This document shows, piece by piece, positions 488 through 50,343 of a stretch of 64,000 nt of DNA (the first letter of the stretch is position 1; every line of letters begins with the position of its first letter). Below the pieces are notes generated by a model. The model had not been told where the DNA came from and searched no databases. It was given only the letters and a program-made list of their open reading frames with translations. This stretch comes from a bacterium. Its GTDB lineage: Bacteria; Patescibacteriota; Minisyncoccia; Phycocordibacterales; UBA2100. The position numbers and the translations under genes were made by a program. Location: the NCBI GenBank assembly GCA_016789445.1, contig JAEUQT010000003.1, positions 82,600 through 146,599 on the forward strand, read 5' to 3'.

Positions 488-564
488 TCACTGGATCCCT
501 GCCCTCAGTGGACATTAGGATAATTATACACCATTTCGGCGTATTTTGTCAATATCCTAGACGA

Positions 565-588
565 GGGAACTATATACCTATCTACCCT
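565..588. repeat. left terminal inverted repeat of the IS element
   Basis: GGGAACTATATACCTATCTACCCT. The reverse complement of 2584-2607 is GGGAACTATATAGATAGCTACCCT. Confidence 0.8.
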
Positions 589-2276: not shown

Positions 2277-2299
2277 ATCACCTTCAAAAGGTGATACAT

Positions 2300-2384
2300 G
2301 CGTCCGTGGCGAAACTAGGTAAACGCAGTGGATTTGTAATCCACCATCCCCTCGGATTTGCGGGTTCAAGTCCCGTCGGACGCA
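2300..2384 (+). tRNA. class II tRNA (long variable arm); anticodon loop TTTGTAA = anticodon UGU as folded; Leu/Tyr-like body
   Basis: Manual cloverleaf. Acceptor GCGTCCG/CGGACGC. D arm GCG-AAACTAGGTAAA-CGC. Anticodon stem GTGGA/TCCAC. 15-nt variable arm (ATCC-CCTC-GGAT). T arm GCGGG-TTCAAGT-CCCGT. Discriminator A. No encoded CCA. Confidence 0.85.
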
Positions 2385-2607: not shown

Positions 2608-3867
2608 CTAGACGATGCTGGTCGCTTGTCGTCGCTTACGATGCCACGTAATCGCGAAACGATGCGCCTCAGAATTGGCGAGAAGGATGTCACGTTCAAA
2701 CGATTGTATGGCATTGAGATTGCCGATGAGACGTTCCGGACGATGGCGTTCGTTCTTTACGACACCCACCAGCGGAATGGTGATACCCGCTTTGGAGAGC
2801 ACTTTCTTGGCGGCATTCATCTGTGCCGTCGAGCCATCGACGACGATGACGCGCGGATACTGCCATTCAGGATGAAGTAATCGGCGCGACAAGACTTCAG
2901 TCAGAGCTCCCGGATCGTTGTTGGTGAATCCCTTCACTTTGAATTTGCGATAGGCGCTTTTGAGCGGTTCCCCTTCTTCGACGGCGACCATGACGCCGAC
3001 CGTTTCGGTGCCGGAGGTGTGGGCGACGTCGAATGCTTCGATACGTGCGCCGCGTTGCGGGATGTTGCCGCCGCTGGAGATGCGGGAATCATCCTTGATG
3101 AGCGCGATGTCGTTGATGTGGGTCAGCGCGCCGACCTGACGGCGTGCGCGTTCGGCATCTTCGAATCGTTCTTCTTTGGCAGCCACTTTCATTTCCTTCT
3201 CGAGCTCCTTCACGAGCGTTTTCTTCTTGCCGCTGAAAAGAAGGCAGATGTTGCGGATAGTGATTGCGTATTCCTGCGCATCGGTTTCTCCGGTGCAGAC
3301 GCCAGGGCACAGCCCTATTTGCCTGTTAAAACAGGGACGGCAATTGGCTTTGCCGGACTTGAGTTGTTCCGAGCATGGGGTGCACTTGTCATCGCGATAC
3401 GGGAAGATGCGACGCACGAGCTTCATCGCTTCGCGCAGCGCGAGGCCTTGCGGAAACGGGCCGAAAAGCTGCTTCACCTTCCCTCCCTGCCAGTTGGTGA
3501 AGTATTCACGACCACGCACGACGAGCAGGCGCGGGAATGCTTCTTCGGTCACCACGAGGTAGTTGAAGCTGCGGTTGTTCTTGTCGATGATGTTGTAGGG
3601 CGGCGTGTGCTTCTTGATGAGATTCGCTTCGAGGATCATCGCTTCGAGTACGGAATCCGCTTCTTCCCACGTGATGGTGTCGGCTTCCTGCACCATGGCC
3701 GCGATGGCGGTGGAACGCGATTCCTGAAGGCCGGCATTGAAATAGCTGCGCACGCGGTCGCGCAGCACCGTTGCCTTGCCGATATACAAAATCTTCCCGC
3801 CCTTCTGGAAGCGGTAGATGCCCGGTGTTTCCGGAAGGTCGAATTTTTGGAGGTCATCTTTCTGCAT
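2608..3867 (-). CDS. uvrC: excinuclease ABC subunit C (short form, 419 aa)
   Basis: N-terminal GIY-YIG (GIYRF...ILYIGKA), a UVR-like helical segment, and an RNase H-like endonuclease domain (EAFDVAHTSG ... EAHRFAITWHRKRR). No C-terminal helix-hairpin-helix pair. Confidence 0.9.
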   Translation of the reverse strand: MQKDDLQKFDLPETPGIYRFQKGGKILYIGKATVLRDRVRSYFNAGLQESRSTAIAAMVQEADTITWEEADSVLEAMILEANLIKKHTPPYNIIDKNNRSFNYLVVTEEAFPRLLVVRGREYFTNWQGGKVKQLFGPFPQGLALREAMKLVRRIFPYRDDKCTPCSEQLKSGKANCRPCFNRQIGLCPGVCTGETDAQEYAITIRNICLLFSGKKKTLVKELEKEMKVAAKEERFEDAERARRQVGALTHINDIALIKDDSRISSGGNIPQRGARIEAFDVAHTSGTETVGVMVAVEEGEPLKSAYRKFKVKGFTNNDPGALTEVLSRRLLHPEWQYPRVIVVDGSTAQMNAAKKVLSKAGITIPLVGVVKNERHRPERLIGNLNAIQSFERDILLANSEAHRFAITWHRKRRQATSIV

Positions 3868-44291: not shown

Positions 44292-47200
44292 TTAACGTCG
44301 AAGTATTGAACCTTCAGAAATGCCAATGAATCTCTCGAAGAAGCTCGTCAATTTATTCAAGACACTATCACGTTTCCGCGAGCGCTCTCCACTTGGGGAG
44401 AAGCGAGAAACTGGTGGCAGCACCTTTGTGAGTGCTGTCCCCGTTATGGCGACTGCGCCGTCGCGAAAGGCATTTTGAACGAAATTATAGGTGGCATCAG
44501 GATCCAGATTTTCATCCTTGATGATTTGGTCCAATTCTTCCACTTTCTTTTCCTCCACATACTTCTGCCAATCCTCGTCCACGACCGAATTCGCATCGAG
44601 CGATGAAATGAATTTGTTGATGAGGTCTTTCTTGTTGCGCAATTCAACGCTCGAATCGATTGCCTTGTTGATGTCAATCAAGAGCTCTTTGTTCTTAGTA
44701 TGGTCTTCGTGGTACTTCTTGATGAGGGCAAGGATGTAATCGATATTGATCTCGATCTGCTTAATGAGCTCCATCTCAAACACCAGATCGTCGTTGATGT
44801 TCTCTTTCTCCTTGTCGATGCTGGTACGGAACTCGTTGTACAGATCAATGTACATGCTGTGGTAGTCCTGCAGATCTCGCGCAGAAAGTATTTCGTTTCC
44901 CGTGAACTGGTCGAAGGTCACCAAGATATTGCGCAACCGCAATACAGCGCCGTACAGCTTTATGAAGTCCTTTTGGCTCTGTTCACCCATAATGCGCTCG
45001 CCCACAGGAAACTTTTCCAGAAGTTCGTCTACCAAGCTCTTGTAGCCCCGCACCTCCTTGTTACGTTCCGTGTAGCCGTTGTAGTAGTCCTCGTATGCTT
45101 TGAGAAGCACGATGCCGCTCGCTTCCTTGTCTCCGAAAAGAGCGATTGCTTCGTTGGTAGCTTTCTCTAAATTGCGGAAGCAGACGATATTGCCGAAGGT
45201 CTTCACGCTGTTAAGGATGCGATTCGTACGGGAATATGCCTGCAGTAGCCCGTGGAGTCGGAGATTCTTGTCCACCCACAGCGTGTTGAGTGTGGTGGCA
45301 TCAAAACCGGTCAGAAACATATTGACCACAATGAGAATATCAATCTCGCGACTCTTTACGCGCTCACTCACGTCTTTATAGTAGTTTTGGAACTTATCTG
45401 ACGAAGTATCGTACGATGTGCCGAACATCGCATTGTAGTCGGCGATAGCACTCTCTAAGAACTCACGCGAACTAGCATCAAGTCCGCTAGTGTCTTCCGA
45501 GTTTTCATCAACCATCCCGTCGGCATCCTCGTCGTTGACGCCAAAACTGAAGATTGTGGCGACCTTCAATTTTTTGTCACTGGGAACGTCCGCGAGCTGT
45601 TTTTTGAACTCGGCATAATACTTCTTTGCGACATCAATGGAAGACACCGCGAATATTGAATTGAAACCGGCAAGGCGTCTGTCTTTCAGCTTGTAAAAGC
45701 TATTGCGCTTTGTCTTTTGGTCGAAGTGTTCGCGTATATAACGCACGATATTCTCGAGTCGTTCAGGCGAAGCGAGAGCTGCCTCACGATCTATACCGCT
45801 CACTTGCTTGTCCTCGATGTCTTCCGCTTCGCGGATTGTGGAGACGTAATCAACCTTGAAGGGCAACACGTTCTTGTCCGCAATCGCGTCCACAATCGTA
45901 TACGTATGGAGCTTGGTGCCGAATGCCTGCTCGGTGGTCTTTAGGTCTGGACGACCACCAGACGAGGCGTTTGCGGCAAATATTGGCGTACCCGTGAAGC
46001 CAAATAGGTGGTAGTTATTAAATGCCTTGGTGATAGCGGCATGCATGTCGCCGAACTGCGAACGATGACACTCATCAAAAATAAGCGCTACATGCCCATC
46101 AAATATGGTGTGTCCGCTGTTGCGCGCTATGAAGCGGTCGAGCTTTTGGATGGTGGTAACGATGATGCGAGCCTTAGAGTCTTCAAGCTGCTTTTTCAAT
46201 ATTGATGTCGAGGTGTTGCTGTTCGCCGCTCCTTTCTCAAACTTGTCATACTCACGCATTGTCTGATAGTCGAGATCCTTGCGGTCTACGATGAAAAGGA
46301 CCTTGTCGATGTACGACAATTTGCTGGCAAGTTGTGCTGCCTTGAAGCTGGTGAGCGTTTTACCCGATCCAGTGGTATGCCAGATGTATCCACCTGCCTC
46401 TACCGTGCCTAGCTTTTTATAGTTGGTACTTACCTCGATGCGGTTCAAAATGCGCTCTGTAGCCACTATTTGATACGGGCGCATAACCAGCAGTTGGTGG
46501 TCGGTCGTGAACACGCAATAGCGTGTGAGGACATTGAGGAGCGTATGCTTGGCAAAAAACGTCTTAGCAAAGTCCATGAGGTCAGCAATCGGCTTGTTGG
46601 TCGCATCTGCCCACCAACTGGTAAACTCAAAGCTGCTGCTCGAACGCTTACCACGCTTTGCTGCGCCTTCGTTTGCTTCCTTGATATGCTGCCAGCGAGT
46701 CGTATTGCTGTAATACTTCGTATGCGTGCCATTCGAGATAACAAAAAGCTGGATGTATTCATAAAGCCCCGAAGCCGCCCAGAAGCTCTCGCGCTGATAG
46801 CGATTAATTTGGTTGAATGCTTCTTGAATAGCCACCCCACGACGTTTGAGTTCAATGTGGACTAACGGCAAGCCGTTCACGAGGATGGTCACGTCATAGC
46901 GATTCGCGCGCGCACCATCCTCGGTCGCGTACTGATTTATGACCTGTAACGTGTTGTCATGCACGTTGTCTTTACGGAGTAGGTAGATGTTCTTTGTGGA
47001 GCCATCATCCCGTGTGAGATTTTTTATGTAGTCCTCTTGAATGGTTGCTGTCTTTTCTTCAATGCTCTGGTTAGGGTTGGCTATTTCACCCTTAAAGAAC
47101 CGTTCCCACTCCTTGTCGGTAAAGATGTAATCGTTGAGCTTCTCAAGCTGGGTGCGGAGGTTTGCAATGAGGTCGTCTTCGCTTGTGATGGGGAGGCAAC

Positions 47201-47354
47201 CATAGGCCTGGGATTCGAGCTGCTCGATAAACGCACGTTCAAGCTCCGCTTCGCTCTGATAGTGTTCCGCGCGGTTCTTGTCCGGCGTGTATTCAGCTAC
47301 GACGGTGCTCTGCGCGTTCTCGGCAACTAAATTGTATTTGTTATTAACTGACAT
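44292..47354 (-). CDS. hsdR: type I restriction enzyme, R subunit
   Basis: 1020 aa. An N-terminal nuclease region and an SF2 helicase core (TGSGKTLT, DECHRSQ, and later motifs). Confidence 0.95.
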   Translation of the reverse strand: MSVNNKYNLVAENAQSTVVAEYTPDKNRAEHYQSEAELERAFIEQLESQAYGCLPITSEDDLIANLRTQLEKLNDYIFTDKEWERFFKGEIANPNQSIEEKTATIQEDYIKNLTRDDGSTKNIYLLRKDNVHDNTLQVINQYATEDGARANRYDVTILVNGLPLVHIELKRRGVAIQEAFNQINRYQRESFWAASGLYEYIQLFVISNGTHTKYYSNTTRWQHIKEANEGAAKRGKRSSSSFEFTSWWADATNKPIADLMDFAKTFFAKHTLLNVLTRYCVFTTDHQLLVMRPYQIVATERILNRIEVSTNYKKLGTVEAGGYIWHTTGSGKTLTSFKAAQLASKLSYIDKVLFIVDRKDLDYQTMREYDKFEKGAANSNTSTSILKKQLEDSKARIIVTTIQKLDRFIARNSGHTIFDGHVALIFDECHRSQFGDMHAAITKAFNNYHLFGFTGTPIFAANASSGGRPDLKTTEQAFGTKLHTYTIVDAIADKNVLPFKVDYVSTIREAEDIEDKQVSGIDREAALASPERLENIVRYIREHFDQKTKRNSFYKLKDRRLAGFNSIFAVSSIDVAKKYYAEFKKQLADVPSDKKLKVATIFSFGVNDEDADGMVDENSEDTSGLDASSREFLESAIADYNAMFGTSYDTSSDKFQNYYKDVSERVKSREIDILIVVNMFLTGFDATTLNTLWVDKNLRLHGLLQAYSRTNRILNSVKTFGNIVCFRNLEKATNEAIALFGDKEASGIVLLKAYEDYYNGYTERNKEVRGYKSLVDELLEKFPVGERIMGEQSQKDFIKLYGAVLRLRNILVTFDQFTGNEILSARDLQDYHSMYIDLYNEFRTSIDKEKENINDDLVFEMELIKQIEINIDYILALIKKYHEDHTKNKELLIDINKAIDSSVELRNKKDLINKFISSLDANSVVDEDWQKYVEEKKVEELDQIIKDENLDPDATYNFVQNAFRDGAVAITGTALTKVLPPVSRFSPSGERSRKRDSVLNKLTSFFERFIGISEGSILRR

Positions 47355-48552
47355 ATTCGGGGAAGGTTAAGAGCTTGCCTCGATAGTATTCGTACTGTTT
47401 GCGCCGTGCCGAGATTTCCGCCGGGAGACCTTCGGATTTGTCATTCACAAGCGCATCAAACTTGTCCAGAATTGACACAATATGTTCTTGCTCTTCCTCT
47501 GACGGAACTGGTACGGGTATCTTGTTGAGGTTTGTTTTGTTGAGCTTTGGTTGTGCTCCTCCGCTGACATAAGATCGTAAATCGATAGAATTCAAATAGA
47601 TCTCAATCAGACGTCGCATTGCATAACTCTCAAACTTAAGAACATGAGCGTGGTTATTGACCCAGGTCTTTCCTGAAATCGAAAAAGCGATTGGCGTCGT
47701 TCTTGCAAGAAGATTGGCTCCATCTTCTGAAACAAGTAAGTAGTCACCCTCAAATATGTAGTCGCTAACATAGTCAACAATGCCGGACGCCCCATAGTAA
47801 GGAACGTTTCCAGCCGTCCGTGCTGATCGCGTGACTGGTTTACGCTTTGAGTCTAAGTTGATGGAAATTCTATCGAGCGTCGTCCATCTTACTCTCTCAC
47901 TCTCGTTAAACGTCAAGAGCTCAGAACGATAATGCTCGTATTGCTTCCCTCTCGCTTCTAACTCTGCTTCTAACTCTGCTTCTAACTCTGTAAAAGCATC
48001 GAGGATGCTTGCAATCTCCTGCTGGATTTCAAGTGGCGGAACGGGAATTTTGATTGATGCCAATGTTGCCATTCGTACTCCTTTAAGCGTACTGCCGACC
48101 GATTGACTTTGATACTGGTCCTTTGCGATGTCTGAACCAAGGATATACATCAAATACCTTGGCAATATTGTTTCTTGCTTGGGTTTTATGATGAAGACAC
48201 TTTCACTGCAATTCCAGTTGTTTGTCGGAATATCTGCCAATGCAACTTTTCCAATAGTTCCAATACCAGAAAACAGCACGTCGTTCAATTCCAAGTCAGA
48301 GCGGTTCTGAATTATTCTTACAGCTTCATCATTAATCTTATCTGTCTTGTCACTGAACTGAACCTTACCAGAAGTAATCTCCTTGACCGTTACATAAAAA
48401 TTGGTTGCGTCGGGCGTATTCAATCTGAAATTCTGGCGCGGATTCAATCCTGTCTTAATTGATTTTGTGATAACTCCCAACTCCCTAAACTCCACACCTT
48501 TCGAGCATTTTTCAGCAATCAACTTTTCAATTTGACTCTGGTGTTTGGTCAT
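47344..48552 (-). CDS. hsdS: type I restriction enzyme, S (specificity) subunit
   Basis: 402 aa. Two target-recognition domains separated by a central coiled-coil region containing (ELEA)x3. Overlaps hsdR by 11 nt. Confidence 0.92.
   Translation of the reverse strand: MTKHQSQIEKLIAEKCSKGVEFRELGVITKSIKTGLNPRQNFRLNTPDATNFYVTVKEITSGKVQFSDKTDKINDEAVRIIQNRSDLELNDVLFSGIGTIGKVALADIPTNNWNCSESVFIIKPKQETILPRYLMYILGSDIAKDQYQSQSVGSTLKGVRMATLASIKIPVPPLEIQQEIASILDAFTELEAELEAELEARGKQYEHYRSELLTFNESERVRWTTLDRISINLDSKRKPVTRSARTAGNVPYYGASGIVDYVSDYIFEGDYLLVSEDGANLLARTTPIAFSISGKTWVNNHAHVLKFESYAMRRLIEIYLNSIDLRSYVSGGAQPKLNKTNLNKIPVPVPSEEEQEHIVSILDKFDALVNDKSEGLPAEISARRKQYEYYRGKLLTFPEYVS
47954..47989. repeat. 3 x 12-bp perfect tandem repeat inside hsdS
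   Basis: GCTTCTAACTCT x3 on the + strand, encoding ELEAELEAELEA in the central conserved region. Confidence 0.9.
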
Positions 48553-48554
48553 GG

Positions 48555-50156
48555 TTATTTTTTACCTTCAATATCAGCAACGATAGCGTCGATAGCGTTA
48601 CGGAGTTCGTTTTGGCGAGCGACAATGTTCGCAATACTCTCGTTCAGCTCCTTGATATCAACTACCTCACGAGTGTCTTTTCCGTCCACATAGCTTGAGA
48701 CCGAGATATTGTAGTCGTTCTCCGCAATATCATTGTTGTTCACCAGCGCGGCAAAGTGCTCAACGTCTTCTCGGTCAATAAAGGCATCGAGGATCTTTTT
48801 GCGATTTGTTTCGCTGAGTTTGTTCTTATTGCCACTGCGAACGAACTCGGTCGATGCGTCAATGAAAAACGTCTTATTGTCTTTCTTACTCTTTTTCAGA
48901 ACAATTACGCAGGTCGCAATAGTTGTGCCGAAGAAGAGATCCGGCGGCAGCTGGATTACAGAGTCGATGTAGTTGTTGTCTATGAGATACTTGCGGATCT
49001 TCTGCTCTGCACCACCGCGATAGAGCACGCCAGGGAACTCGACGATGGCTGCCGTGCCGTTCGTCGCAAGCCACGAGAGCATGTGCATTGTGAATGCGAG
49101 ATCCGCTTTGCTCTTAGGCGCGAGTACACCTGCCGGAGAGAAACGGGGGTCGTTGATGAGAATGGGATTAGCGTCACCCTCCCATCGGATTGAGTAGGGA
49201 GGGTTCGATACGATGGCCTCAAATGGCTCATCGTCCCAGTGCTTAGGGTCTGTGAGAGTATCACCATGCGCGATATTGAACTTCTCGTAGTTGATATCGT
49301 GCAAGAACATGTTGATGCGGCATAGATTGAACGTGGTGAGATTGATTTCCTGTCCGAAAAACCCCTGACGTACTTTGTCTTTACTCAGTACCTTGGCGAA
49401 TTTGAGCAACAGCGAACCGGAGCCGCACGCAGGGTCATACACTTTATTGACTTCCTTTTTGCCTACCGTAGTTATCTCTGCCAGTAGCTCGCTTACTTCC
49501 TGTGGCGTAAAGAACTCGCCGCCGGACTTACCGGCGTTGGAGGCGTACATGGTCATGAGGAACTCGTATGCATCGCCGAAAGCATCTATTGAGTTGTCGG
49601 CATAGTCGCCAAAGCGCAAACCCCCTATTGCCTCAAGGAGCTTTGCGAGCTTCTGATTGCGTCTTTCTACGGTGTTGCCCAGCTTGCCGGAGTTAACGTC
49701 GAGGTCGTCGAAAAGTCCCTTGAGGTCATCCTCGCTATCTGCGCCCTTCGCGGAGCTCTCTATGTTGTTGAAGACGCGCTCAAGTGTTTCGTTGAGGTTC
49801 GCGTCATTCCGAGCGTTTTTTGTGACGTTTACGAACAGCTCGCTTGGCAGTATGTAAAAACCTTTCTCTTTTACCGTATCGGCGCGACCAAATTCAGCTT
49901 GTTTATCTGAAAGTGATGCGTAATCAAAATCCTTTTTTCCAGCACGCTGCTCCTCTTCATTGATGTAGCTCTCGAGGTTCTCGCTAATGAAGCGATAGAA
50001 GAGCATTCCAAGCACGTACTGCTTAAAATCCCACCCGTCCACACTGCCACGAAGATCGTTGGCAATCTGCCAAATGGCACGATGCAATTCTGACCGCTCT
50101 TGGTCTTTCGTGACTGCTGAACCTTGTTTGTTCACCATATAGTCGATCTTGATCAT
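48555..50156 (-). CDS. hsdM: type I restriction enzyme, M (N6-adenine methyltransferase) subunit
   Basis: HsdM N-domain (IWQIANDLRG...YVLGMLFYRFIS), the AdoMet motif VYDPACGSGSLL and the catalytic motif NPPY. The start is set at MIKIDYM (50156), 1 nt after the stop of the upstream mini-ORF; 50138 is also possible. Confidence 0.92.
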   Translation of the reverse strand: MIKIDYMVNKQGSAVTKDQERSELHRAIWQIANDLRGSVDGWDFKQYVLGMLFYRFISENLESYINEEEQRAGKKDFDYASLSDKQAEFGRADTVKEKGFYILPSELFVNVTKNARNDANLNETLERVFNNIESSAKGADSEDDLKGLFDDLDVNSGKLGNTVERRNQKLAKLLEAIGGLRFGDYADNSIDAFGDAYEFLMTMYASNAGKSGGEFFTPQEVSELLAEITTVGKKEVNKVYDPACGSGSLLLKFAKVLSKDKVRQGFFGQEINLTTFNLCRINMFLHDINYEKFNIAHGDTLTDPKHWDDEPFEAIVSNPPYSIRWEGDANPILINDPRFSPAGVLAPKSKADLAFTMHMLSWLATNGTAAIVEFPGVLYRGGAEQKIRKYLIDNNYIDSVIQLPPDLFFGTTIATCVIVLKKSKKDNKTFFIDASTEFVRSGNKNKLSETNRKKILDAFIDREDVEHFAALVNNNDIAENDYNISVSSYVDGKDTREVVDIKELNESIANIVARQNELRNAIDAIVADIEGKK

Positions 50157-50157
50157 T

Positions 50158-50343
50158 CTAACGCACAAGACTGATTCCCCACCCCAGAATGCTGAGAAAA
50201 AGAACCCAGCTGAGAAATTGCACAAAATGCCCATATGCCCCATGTACAACAGCACTCGCCAAGCGCCACAACGGATATAGCAAAAAGAAAGCTGCCCTCA
50301 GAACTGCATTGAGCAAATATTCCCACCATCGCTGTCTGTACAT
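50158..50343 (-). CDS. small 2-TM membrane protein (61 aa), first gene of the R-M operon
   Basis: ORF track (MYRQRWWEYLL...). Its ATG follows the shared 35-nt leader at the same spacing as in the NYN gene. Its TAG is 1 nt from the hsdM ATG. Confidence 0.5.
   Translation of the reverse strand: MYRQRWWEYLLNAVLRAAFFLLYPLWRLASAVVHGAYGHFVQFLSWVLFLSILGWGISLVR

Follow-up and report, generated by a model that had tools for sequence, protein, structure and literature searches.

A class II, leucine-type tRNA with a UGU anticodon is a conserved component of an IS1595 lineage, and its codon is frozen in the transposase gene

What does a transposable element do with a tRNA gene whose body points to one amino acid and whose anticodon points to another? 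This question is raised by a 64,000-nt stretch of DNA from a patescibacterium (contig JAEUQT010000003.1 of assembly GCA_016789445.1, positions 82,600 to 146,599 of the forward strand), referred to here as the window. In this tiny groundwater bacterium, an insertion sequence (IS) of the IS1595 family occupies positions 565–2607 (2,043 bp) and holds a transposase gene, two small open reading frames (ORFs) and a tRNA gene (Table 1). Sequence comparisons firmly show that a lineage of IS1595 elements in Candidate Phyla Radiation (CPR) bacteria has conserved this class II, leucine-type tRNA(UGU) as one of its parts and that its codon, ACA, is frozen in the transposase gene. To the further proposal that the tRNA is charged with leucine and recodes the frozen transposase positions we give roughly even chances.

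A class II tRNA(UGU) carried across an IS1595 lineage

ARAGORN found a single tRNA in the window, called as Thr(tgt) at 2299–2385 on the forward strand, and the Rfam model RF00005 matched 2300–2384 over its full length (57.9 bits, where the gathering threshold is 29; E = 6.8e-10), the variable region taking an insertion of 13 nt. The cloverleaf has a 7-bp acceptor stem (GCGTCCG/CGGACGC), a 3-bp D stem (GCG/CGC) whose loop contains GG, a 5-bp anticodon stem (GTGGA/TCCAC) and the T arm GCGGG-TTCAAGT-CCCGT; CCA is not encoded. The variable arm is longer than 10 nt and forms its own stem-loop, as in class II tRNAs. An initial annotation of the stretch had described an 85-nt class II cloverleaf with a loop reading UGU, a description with which ARAGORN, RF00005 and the covariation analysis all agree.

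For the latter, we aligned 23 copies of the tRNA with a mean column identity of 66%. Pairing holds in 98.7% of stem cells across these copies, and compensatory, two-sided changes are seen at 19 of the 20 stem pairs; shuffled and slid controls fell far below the observed pairing and covariation, and none of 500 shuffles reached them. All five anticodon-stem pairs covary among the 23 homologues while TGT is invariant, which fixes the register of the anticodon. The family has the canonical 7/5 geometry of acceptor and T stem and an anticodon loop of the form YYUGURA, with UGU in all 27 distinct sequences; positions 32 and 33 and the stems vary among copies, the anticodon does not. In the other 22 copies, the variable region measures 14–24 nt and, when folded alone, forms a stem of 3–7 bp in 21 of them and none in locus L054. 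Copies with C33, with G37 or with a non-canonical elbow also occur.

These data bear on the possibility, raised in the initial annotation, that the gene is a decayed copy of a tRNA-Leu or tRNA-Tyr carried by the IS, and on the related one that it is what remains of an integration site. Such an origin would account for the mismatch of anticodon and body and for the missing CCA. We nevertheless consider its probability vanishingly small: the gene scores 57.9 bits on RF00005, it is kept in elements whose transposases differ from that of the window by up to about 39%, and pairing and compensatory change at these levels in 23 divergent copies, with controls far lower, mark a functional fold and exclude a pseudogene. 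A second suggestion, that the loop is a tRNA-Tyr loop shifted by one nucleotide, was dropped, as covariation fixes the register of the anticodon stem and the body is Leu-type, with an A15–U48 pair and a score like that of host tRNA-Leu. No register puts GUA at positions 34–36. The leucine anticodons NAG and YAA do not occur in the family either, UGU being found throughout.

The body itself carries leucine-type identity elements. A73 is present in 22 of the 23 copies, A15 paired with U48 likewise in 22, and G18G19 in at least 90%; the window's tRNA has A73, A15, U48 and a D loop GGUA (G18G19, A20a), the set that defines leucine identity in Escherichia coli. The E. coli leucyl-tRNA synthetase (LeuRS) recognises A73, A15–U48, G18G19 and A20a and ignores the anticodon and the variable arm (PMC9976931). 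A covariance model of the family gave host tRNA-Leu(CAG) 68.6 bits, compared with 41.7 for tRNA-Ser and at most 47 for class I tRNAs. The body had initially been described as Leu/Tyr-like and not Thr-like, and A73, A15–U48 and the family-model scores fit the leucine half of that description. Every copy has a long variable arm, where tRNA-Thr, a class I tRNA, has a short variable loop; a host-type tRNA-Thr(UGU) of 73 nt and class I structure lies at L055 754–826, beside a lone inverted repeat. The cargo tRNA combines leucine-type identity elements with a threonine anticodon in one molecule.

The tRNA is a regular part of the element. Transposase homologues number more than 7,800 at E ≤ 1e-20, and the few with a source name all come from CPR bacteria. 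In every homologous locus with enough flanking sequence, a long 'Thr(tgt)' tRNA adjoins the transposase gene; the 27 distinct tRNA(UGU) sequences accompany transposases 61–98% identical to that of the window. A metagenome scan that used only the inverted-repeat consensus, and was thus blind to the tRNA, returned 69 loci, mostly short contig fragments, in which all judgeable complete elements related to the window's had the same kind of tRNA; the covariance model retrieved copies that ARAGORN had missed. The groundwater sites from which loci came are Hainich and Rifle, and GCA_001823065.1 is one of the genomes in which the element is present. Eleven further elements have the same inverted repeats and a different target duplication of their own (perfect in ten, 7 of 8 positions matching in one), and a class II tRNA(UGU) lies within nine of the eleven. 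Two of these elements, non-autonomous and 1.2 and 2.0 kb long (L042 176–1404 and L074 1388–3356), have the inverted repeats and tRNA(UGU) with no transposase gene, flanked by duplications matching at 8 of 8 and 7 of 8 positions, respectively; the L042 tRNA has G73 in place of A73. A scan of our collection with the loop motif YTGTAA, which also hits the normal Tyr loop CTGTAAA, gave 16 genome hits, mostly ordinary tRNA-Tyr genes at the head of arrays of about 30 tRNAs in Acidobacteria, with L018 and L024 as the only family members.

Within the element, the position and orientation of the tRNA gene vary, and it often abuts an inverted repeat, pointing outward. The elements are mosaic: between the window's IS and its relative at L001 3679–6144, the transposase module is 93% identical at the DNA level and the tRNA module 73.5%, which indicates that the modules recombine, and the spacer differs by about 500 bp. 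Despite this recombination, the class II body and the UGU anticodon are always kept in the copies compared.

Two sister elements carry other tRNAs. The tRNA at L100 3595–3683 (+), the same in L101–L105, is of class II with a Ser-type body and the anticodon UAA, and that at L118 3590–3690 (+), the same in L119, is of class II with a Ser-type body and the anticodon UAG; the Ser-type features are G73, G15–C48 and a Ser-like D arm. With one sequence per type in these two sister elements, the cargo appears as a rule to combine a body and an anticodon that do not match.

A more distant IS1595 element at L080 299–3015 (transposase 47% identical, target duplication AAAAAGAT) holds, at 2863–2934, a tRNA-Ile(UAU) of class I whose anticodon stem is weak. 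Host-type class I tRNA-Ile(UAU) genes, at L035 7069–7142, L059 5777–5849, L071 2894–2966 and L089 3347–3419, lie 0.8–2.6 kb outside several of the elements, which suggests that these CPR hosts decode AUA with a UAU tRNA.

Frozen ACA codons in the transposase gene

We aligned, codon by codon, 13 distinct transposase genes from tRNA(UGU)-bearing elements and extended the alignment to 21 genes. Among the 76 conserved columns of amino acids with at least three codons (13 genes), four use one codon only, and in all four (columns 87, 169, 185 and 291) that codon is ACA; a fifth, column 193, has ACA in 10 of the 13 and takes no further threonine codon. Eleven other conserved threonine columns drift among ACC, ACG, ACT and ACA, the synonymous sites flanking the frozen codons drift too, and column 88, adjacent to the always-ACA column 87, takes any threonine codon and provides an internal control. 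In the 21 genes, ACC, ACG and ACT never occur at the frozen columns. Where ACA is missing, the codon stands for another amino acid, which is Val at column 291 and one of Lys, Leu and Phe at column 169.

In L100–L105, which carry the UAA cargo tRNA and whose transposase (64% identical) is as near as that of some in-group elements, columns 87, 169, 185, 193 and 291 read ACT, ATT, ACT, CTA and GTG. L118, with the UAG cargo, has ATT at column 169, ACT at column 185 and GTA at column 291. These alignments show a coupling: ACA is frozen in the elements that carry tRNA(UGU). In the sister elements, the conserved leucine columns 86 and 248 are TTA in the UAA type and CTA in the UAG type, again with one sequence per type; this use of the codon of the element's own tRNA hints at either rare-codon supply or deliberate mis-incorporation at essential residues.

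Within the elements, the freezing is specific to the transposase gene, as far as the compared genes tell. Across ten elements, the 44-aa ORF that follows the transposase gene shows no frozen ACA, its threonine codon drifting among ACA, ACT, ACC and ACG, and the two cargo genes encoding a DUF5343 protein that we compared have no ACA position in common. We also considered two other roles for ACA, a cleavage word of the MazF type and a motif in the DNA, and rejected both, given that only the in-frame codon is conserved and flanking synonymous sites vary.

If the element's tRNA were charged with threonine, ACA would be synonymous with the other threonine codons, there would be no selection on codon choice and no freezing. 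ACA is frozen; the element's tRNA should therefore have an effect there which the host tRNA lacks, and insertion of a different amino acid is the simplest candidate for that effect. The initial annotation had listed recoding by a tRNA of leucine identity and use of the tRNA by the mobile element as separate interpretations; with ACA frozen only alongside tRNA(UGU), the two are better merged into one.

Coupling to the transposase gene also weighs on explanations that place the function of the tRNA elsewhere. The tRNA could be cargo that benefits or manipulates the host, for example by causing low-level Thr-to-Leu mistranslation under stress or by serving as decoy or substitute when an anticodon nuclease attacks a tRNA-Thr(UGU), with the transposase codons a side effect. 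Elements that consist of the tRNA without a transposase gene (L042 and L074) have indeed transposed, the tRNA and transposase modules recombine independently of each other, and other cargo (DUF5343 genes and small ORFs) rides in the elements. However, this account leaves unexplained why invariant ACA columns occur only in tRNA(UGU)-bearing elements, and no nuclease or defence gene is consistently linked at the loci examined; we regard it as quite improbable. We consider very improbable a non-translational role of a tRNA-shaped RNA, as a processing signal, insulator, promoter module or transposase cofactor. The variable position and orientation, the frequent outward-pointing placement against an inverted repeat and the copies with C33, G37 or a non-canonical elbow would suit such a role, but it would not explain why UGU is invariant while positions 32 and 33 and the stems vary, nor why the codon that is frozen in the transposase gene should be the one that UGU reads.

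Charging of the tRNA and the reading of ACA

We propose that the Leu-type body would lead to charging by a LeuRS blind to the anticodon, and that the element's tRNA would then decode obligate ACA at four to six transposase positions, probably as leucine. Production of one form of the transposase would in this way be tied to the dose of the element's own tRNA. Given the identity elements, we think that tRNA(UGU) is probably charged with leucine.

The amino acids found at the frozen columns in the wider family are informative here. In 150 diverse IS1595 transposases, 33–61% identical, column 291 has Leu 74, Ile 20, Val 18, Phe 14 and Thr 1 among 145 sequences, column 169 has Val 44, Ile 30, Leu 24 and Thr 2 of 148, and column 191 has Phe 35, Ile 32, Leu 25 and Thr 4 of about 148; column 87 has Thr 61, Ser 23 and Leu, Val or Ile 24, and column 185 is variable. 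Summed over the five frozen columns, log10 odds rank leucine first (+0.85) and threonine sixth (−1.0), whereas ordinary threonine columns give threonine +8.9 in the same profile. Insertion of leucine is indirectly favoured because the wider family has V, I, L or F at such columns, because of the log odds and because no strictly conserved threonine column is frozen.

The host uses ACA in the normal way. In the host genes of the window, ACA makes up 12% of threonine codons, and codon frequencies per 1,000 are 6.5 for ACA, 2.9 for TTA, 2.9 for CTA and 7.2 for ATA. ACA encodes invariant threonines of UvrB (T62 and T402, the latter in the SATP motif) and conserved Thr or Ser positions of UvrA (T514) and PurB (T470). 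Judged by these positions, the host reads ACA as threonine. Complete genomes of Paceibacteria have 2–4 tRNA-Thr genes (PMC13011429, Table S2).

This host background has to be weighed in considering cognate supply of a rare codon, in the manner of bldA and TTA. A threonine-charged tRNA, recognised by way of G35, U36 and the first acceptor pairs, would make ACA codons slow checkpoints that time translation of the transposase, for example by a pause after the N-terminal DNA-binding domain emerges. In its favour, the codons read by the cargo anticodons seen (UGU, UAA, UAG and UAU) are all rare and end in A, columns 87 and 185 resemble threonine positions, TTA and CTA stand at the conserved leucine columns 86 and 248 of the UAA and UAG elements, ACA is tolerated at ordinary threonine positions of the element's genes, and the determinants of threonyl-tRNA synthetase (ThrRS) are mostly present. 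Yet the host, with 2–4 tRNA-Thr genes, decodes ACA already, and nothing would then force ACA to stay; a silent change would be possible at any of about 20 threonine codons, and none of the five strictly conserved threonine columns is frozen. Two of the frozen columns, moreover, are positions where the family has V, I or L and almost never threonine. A normal class I tRNA-Thr would do for this purpose, but every copy keeps the Leu-type class II body, and the UAA and UAG cargo tRNAs are Ser-type and have G73, which acts against recognition by E. coli LeuRS (PMC9976931). On balance, rare-codon supply seems unlikely to us, although it is the chief rival to leucine charging.

Several observations weigh against leucine charging and recoding. 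In E. coli, the determinants of ThrRS are G35 and U36 together with G1–C72 and C2–G71. Most are kept here: G35 and U36 in all 23 copies and G1–C72 and C2–G71 in 19 each, with UGU and both acceptor pairs in the window's tRNA itself. Since these determinants are also mostly present, sequence alone cannot settle the charging; ThrRS determinants are covered by a general statement in the identity review (PMC9976931). The tRNAs of L001 and L002 lack G18G19, which E. coli LeuRS needs; they have the T loop UGCAAGU and with it a non-canonical elbow. No class I tRNA-Thr(UGU) could be detected in an element-holding genome; a host-type copy came to light only in L055. Columns 87 and 185 are Thr-like, with Thr or Ser at 87 in the wider family and ACT at both in the UAA element; L118, with its UAG cargo, still has ACA at column 87. 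At columns 191 and 193, the K, R, Q and A found within the group fit neither leucine nor threonine well. Outside the frozen columns, ACA accounts for 12% of threonine codons compared with 16% for A-ending codons in other four-codon boxes (p = 0.12), an avoidance that is weak and not significant, and the conserved threonine of the 44-aa ORF is often ACA. Efficient Thr-to-Leu decoding would be costly at this ORF and in host genes.

Decoding at ACA is therefore probably ambiguous, given that columns 87 and 185 are Thr-like, that ACA is only weakly depleted and common in the 44-aa ORF, and that host proteins would be damaged: the host tRNA would insert threonine and the element's tRNA leucine. Leucine is not obviously required at columns 87 and 185, and freezing there would therefore need entrenchment or an effect at the codon level.

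Ambiguous decoding could be extended to a two-way gate. Host reading would be needed at columns 87 and 185 (as Thr) and, in the sister elements with Ser-type tRNAs, at columns 86 and 248 (as Leu), and the element's mismatched tRNA would be needed at columns 169 and 291 (as Leu); only an intermediate amount of the tRNA would then yield fully functional transposase. Ambiguous decoding of a sense codon would in this form control copy number and make the tRNA indispensable to the element, and the CPR IS lineage would, more generally, be a natural reservoir of tRNAs that reassign sense codons (Leu body with UGU, Ser body with UAA or UAG). We offer the gate as a speculation that is unlikely to hold.

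Known systems, the element and its surroundings

Several known systems resemble this one in part. Phage suppressor tRNAs, as in crAss-like and Lak phages, recode stop codons in the phage's own genes. They likewise involve a mobile element that carries a deviant tRNA and has the matching codon in its own genes, which would make these genes depend on that tRNA for correct expression, but the carrier here is a 2-kb IS and not a phage, the codon is the sense codon ACA, which the host uses for threonine at essential positions, and only four to six codons of one gene are concerned. The nematode nev-tRNAs, said to have been described by Hamashima et al. in 2012, are reportedly class II tRNAs charged with leucine that have Gly or Ile anticodons. 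They share a Leu-type class II body, a non-leucine anticodon and an anticodon-blind LeuRS with the present case; unlike it, they are eukaryotic and chromosomal, whereas our tRNA is bacterial, transposon-borne and coupled to frozen codons. We know of no gene with dedicated codons linked to the nev-tRNAs. Allo-tRNAs (reportedly Mukai et al., 2017) are said to be natural missense and nonsense suppressors of bacteria. They, too, are bacterial and combine the identity for an anticodon-blind synthetase with the anticodon of another amino acid, but have 8/4 or 9/3 geometry and Ser or Ala identity as opposed to 7/5 and Leu-type here, where genetic context and target codons are also defined.

In Streptomyces, bldA encodes a cognate tRNA-Leu(UAA) that is the sole decoder of TTA, a codon absent from essential genes. 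Both cases pair a dedicated tRNA with a rare codon kept at set positions; here, by contrast, the anticodon does not match the body, and ACA serves the host at invariant threonines, including those of UvrB, and for 12% of its threonine codons, so that ACA is neither absent from essential genes nor, judging by this usage, left to one decoder. IS1595-family elements with passenger genes form the '+' subgroups of ISfinder. These elements have the same transposase with a Zn ribbon, inverted repeats, 8-bp duplication and extra genes, although the passenger in our case is a tRNA gene functionally tied to the transposase gene. The system described here is a member of none of the four tRNA systems (phage suppressors, nev-tRNAs, allo-tRNAs or bldA). 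Full-text literature searches found no description of an IS-borne tRNA or of a class II tRNA(UGU), and a full-text search for 'allo-tRNA' with 'transposase' returned nothing.

If the proposal is correct, this would be the first IS known to employ a tRNA of its own in expressing its genes, and a selfish element would be giving a sense codon a private meaning in a cell that uses the codon normally. Translation by way of a dedicated, mismatched tRNA would be a new control of transposition, and the elements would offer a natural system for ambiguous decoding and the first steps of codon reassignment. Calls of 'tRNA-Thr(UGU)' in Patescibacteria might hide Leu-type tRNAs, affecting tRNA inventories and inference of genetic codes in these uncultured bacteria. 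Charging with threonine would leave a class II tRNA-Thr tied to frozen codons of a transposase, which would also be new.

Table 1. Features of the IS1595-family element and its insertion site, in coordinates of the window. Columns are those of the transposase codon alignment.
Feature	Position	Strand	Evidence or remark
Target-site duplication, left, 8 bp, CTAGACGA	557–564	.	Identical to 2608–2615
Left terminal inverted repeat, GGGAACTATATACCTATCTACCCT	565–588	+	21/24 match to 2584–2607
59-aa ORF, hydrophobic N terminus and charged tail, cargo	599–778	−	ORF reading
44-aa very basic ORF (MSKKETRGRKPK...SFDEVL...)	780–914	−	Conserved; overlaps transposase stop (ATGA)
IS1595-family transposase gene, 294 aa	911–1795	−	Pfam
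Obligate ACA, residue 278 (column 291)	962–964	−	ACA 13/17; else GTG/GTC
Semi-conserved ACA, residue 180 (column 191)	1256–1258	−	ACA 6/19; else Ala, Gln or Lys codons
Obligate ACA, residue 174 (column 185)	1274–1276	−	ACA 18/18; ACT in tRNA(UAA)- and tRNA(UAG)-type elements
Obligate ACA, residue 158 (column 169)	1322–1324	−	ACA 16/19; else AAA, CTA or TTT
Obligate ACA, residue 87 (column 87)	1535–1537	−	ACA 21/21; ACT in tRNA(UAA)-type element
Promoter-like site 5' of transposase gene, TTGACA-17-TAGGAT	1802–1830	−	Consensus scan, 10/12 matches; predicted
Hairpin in tRNA 5' leader	2277–2295	+	8-bp stem, 3-nt loop
Class II tRNA, Leu-type body	2300–2384	+	85 nt; ARAGORN, Rfam, family alignment
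Anticodon TGT (UGU)	2335–2337	+	Within 7-nt loop TTTGTAA, 2333–2339
Variable arm of tRNA	2345–2359	+	15 nt, 4-bp stem
Discriminator A of tRNA	2384	+	Read from sequence
Right terminal inverted repeat	2584–2607	−	Pairs with 565–588
Target-site duplication, right, CTAGACGA	2608–2615	.	Includes uvrC stop codon

The initial annotation had called the tRNA element-borne, and this holds: terminal inverted repeats and an 8-bp duplication enclose tRNA and transposase gene, and close relatives have the empty site. The host is a member of the Parcubacteria/Paceibacterota near Candidatus Kaiserbacteria, its UvrB being 79–84% identical to named proteins; an exact look-up of the window's UvrC gave no recorded match. 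In two relatives with 95% and 88% identical UvrB proteins (L117 and L115), the site is uninterrupted, with uvrC followed directly by the ddl region; the flanks in the window align across this uvrC–ddl junction and the element is precisely absent. Judged by these empty sites, the insertion is recent and the tRNA moved as part of the element. The gene uvrC is not truncated, because the duplicated target includes its stop codon. The 24-nt inverted repeat is unique within the window, and related elements have the consensus end GGGAACTATATANNTANNTACCCT in common. A third copy of CTAGACGA lies at 587–594, just inside the left inverted repeat, where 9 nt (CCTAGACGA) are common with the flank; it is unlikely to be due to chance and may reflect a choice of targets resembling the element's own end.

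The transposase matches the Pfam domains DDE_Tnp_IS1595 (2.4e-42) and, as an N-terminal Zn ribbon, Zn_ribbon_IS1595 (6.4e-10). The 44-aa ORF follows the transposase gene in L001, L002, L011, L038, L059, L077, L086, L100 and L106, was found in nearly all related elements and may encode an accessory or regulatory protein. A sensitive Rfam scan of positions 400–2800 found no other known RNA in the element and no T-box.

The hairpin upstream of the tRNA had initially been likened, as a 6-bp stem with a 7-nt loop, to an anticodon arm. The hairpin is real, with a minimum-energy form of −8.8 kcal/mol (z = −3.4), but it folds with the longer stem and shorter loop of Table 1 and recurs only in L001, the closest relative, being absent in the other elements. 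Its likeness to an anticodon arm is superficial and, by this fold and distribution, a matter of chance. Of the initial interpretation as a whole, the class II UGU reading, the element-borne setting and the Leu/Tyr-like body have stood; the decayed copy, the Tyr shift and the anticodon-arm hairpin have fallen away.

Further forms of the element and other cargo were seen in the collection. Inverted-repeat pairs 150–600 bp apart without tRNA or transposase gene, resembling miniature inverted-repeat transposable elements, lie at L048 10610–10759, L050 13295–13592, L060 2561–2945, L078 1738–2336, L092 1875–2360 and L098 1236–1691. A DUF5343 gene is extra cargo between the tRNA and transposase genes at L004 4068–4817 (−) and L112 377–1114 (−), and at L046 652–1457 a 68-bp unit, in which words similar to the IS inverted repeat occur, is repeated in tandem. 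The viral contig collection had no match to the IS ends. Metagenome-assembled genomes of Acidobacteriota (Pyrinomonadaceae and others; L015, L016, L023 and L025–L029) have 18–30 tRNA genes within about 5 kb, tRNA-Tyr first, including 'Leu' tRNAs that, at 74 nt, lack the long variable arm, and 'Glu' tRNAs about 87 nt long.

Elsewhere in the window, a type I restriction–modification operon (hsdR, hsdS and hsdM) at 44295–50255 (−) was probably acquired horizontally, given that it forms an island of 47–48% GC in a genome of about 57% GC; this island is richer in ACA codons than core genes.

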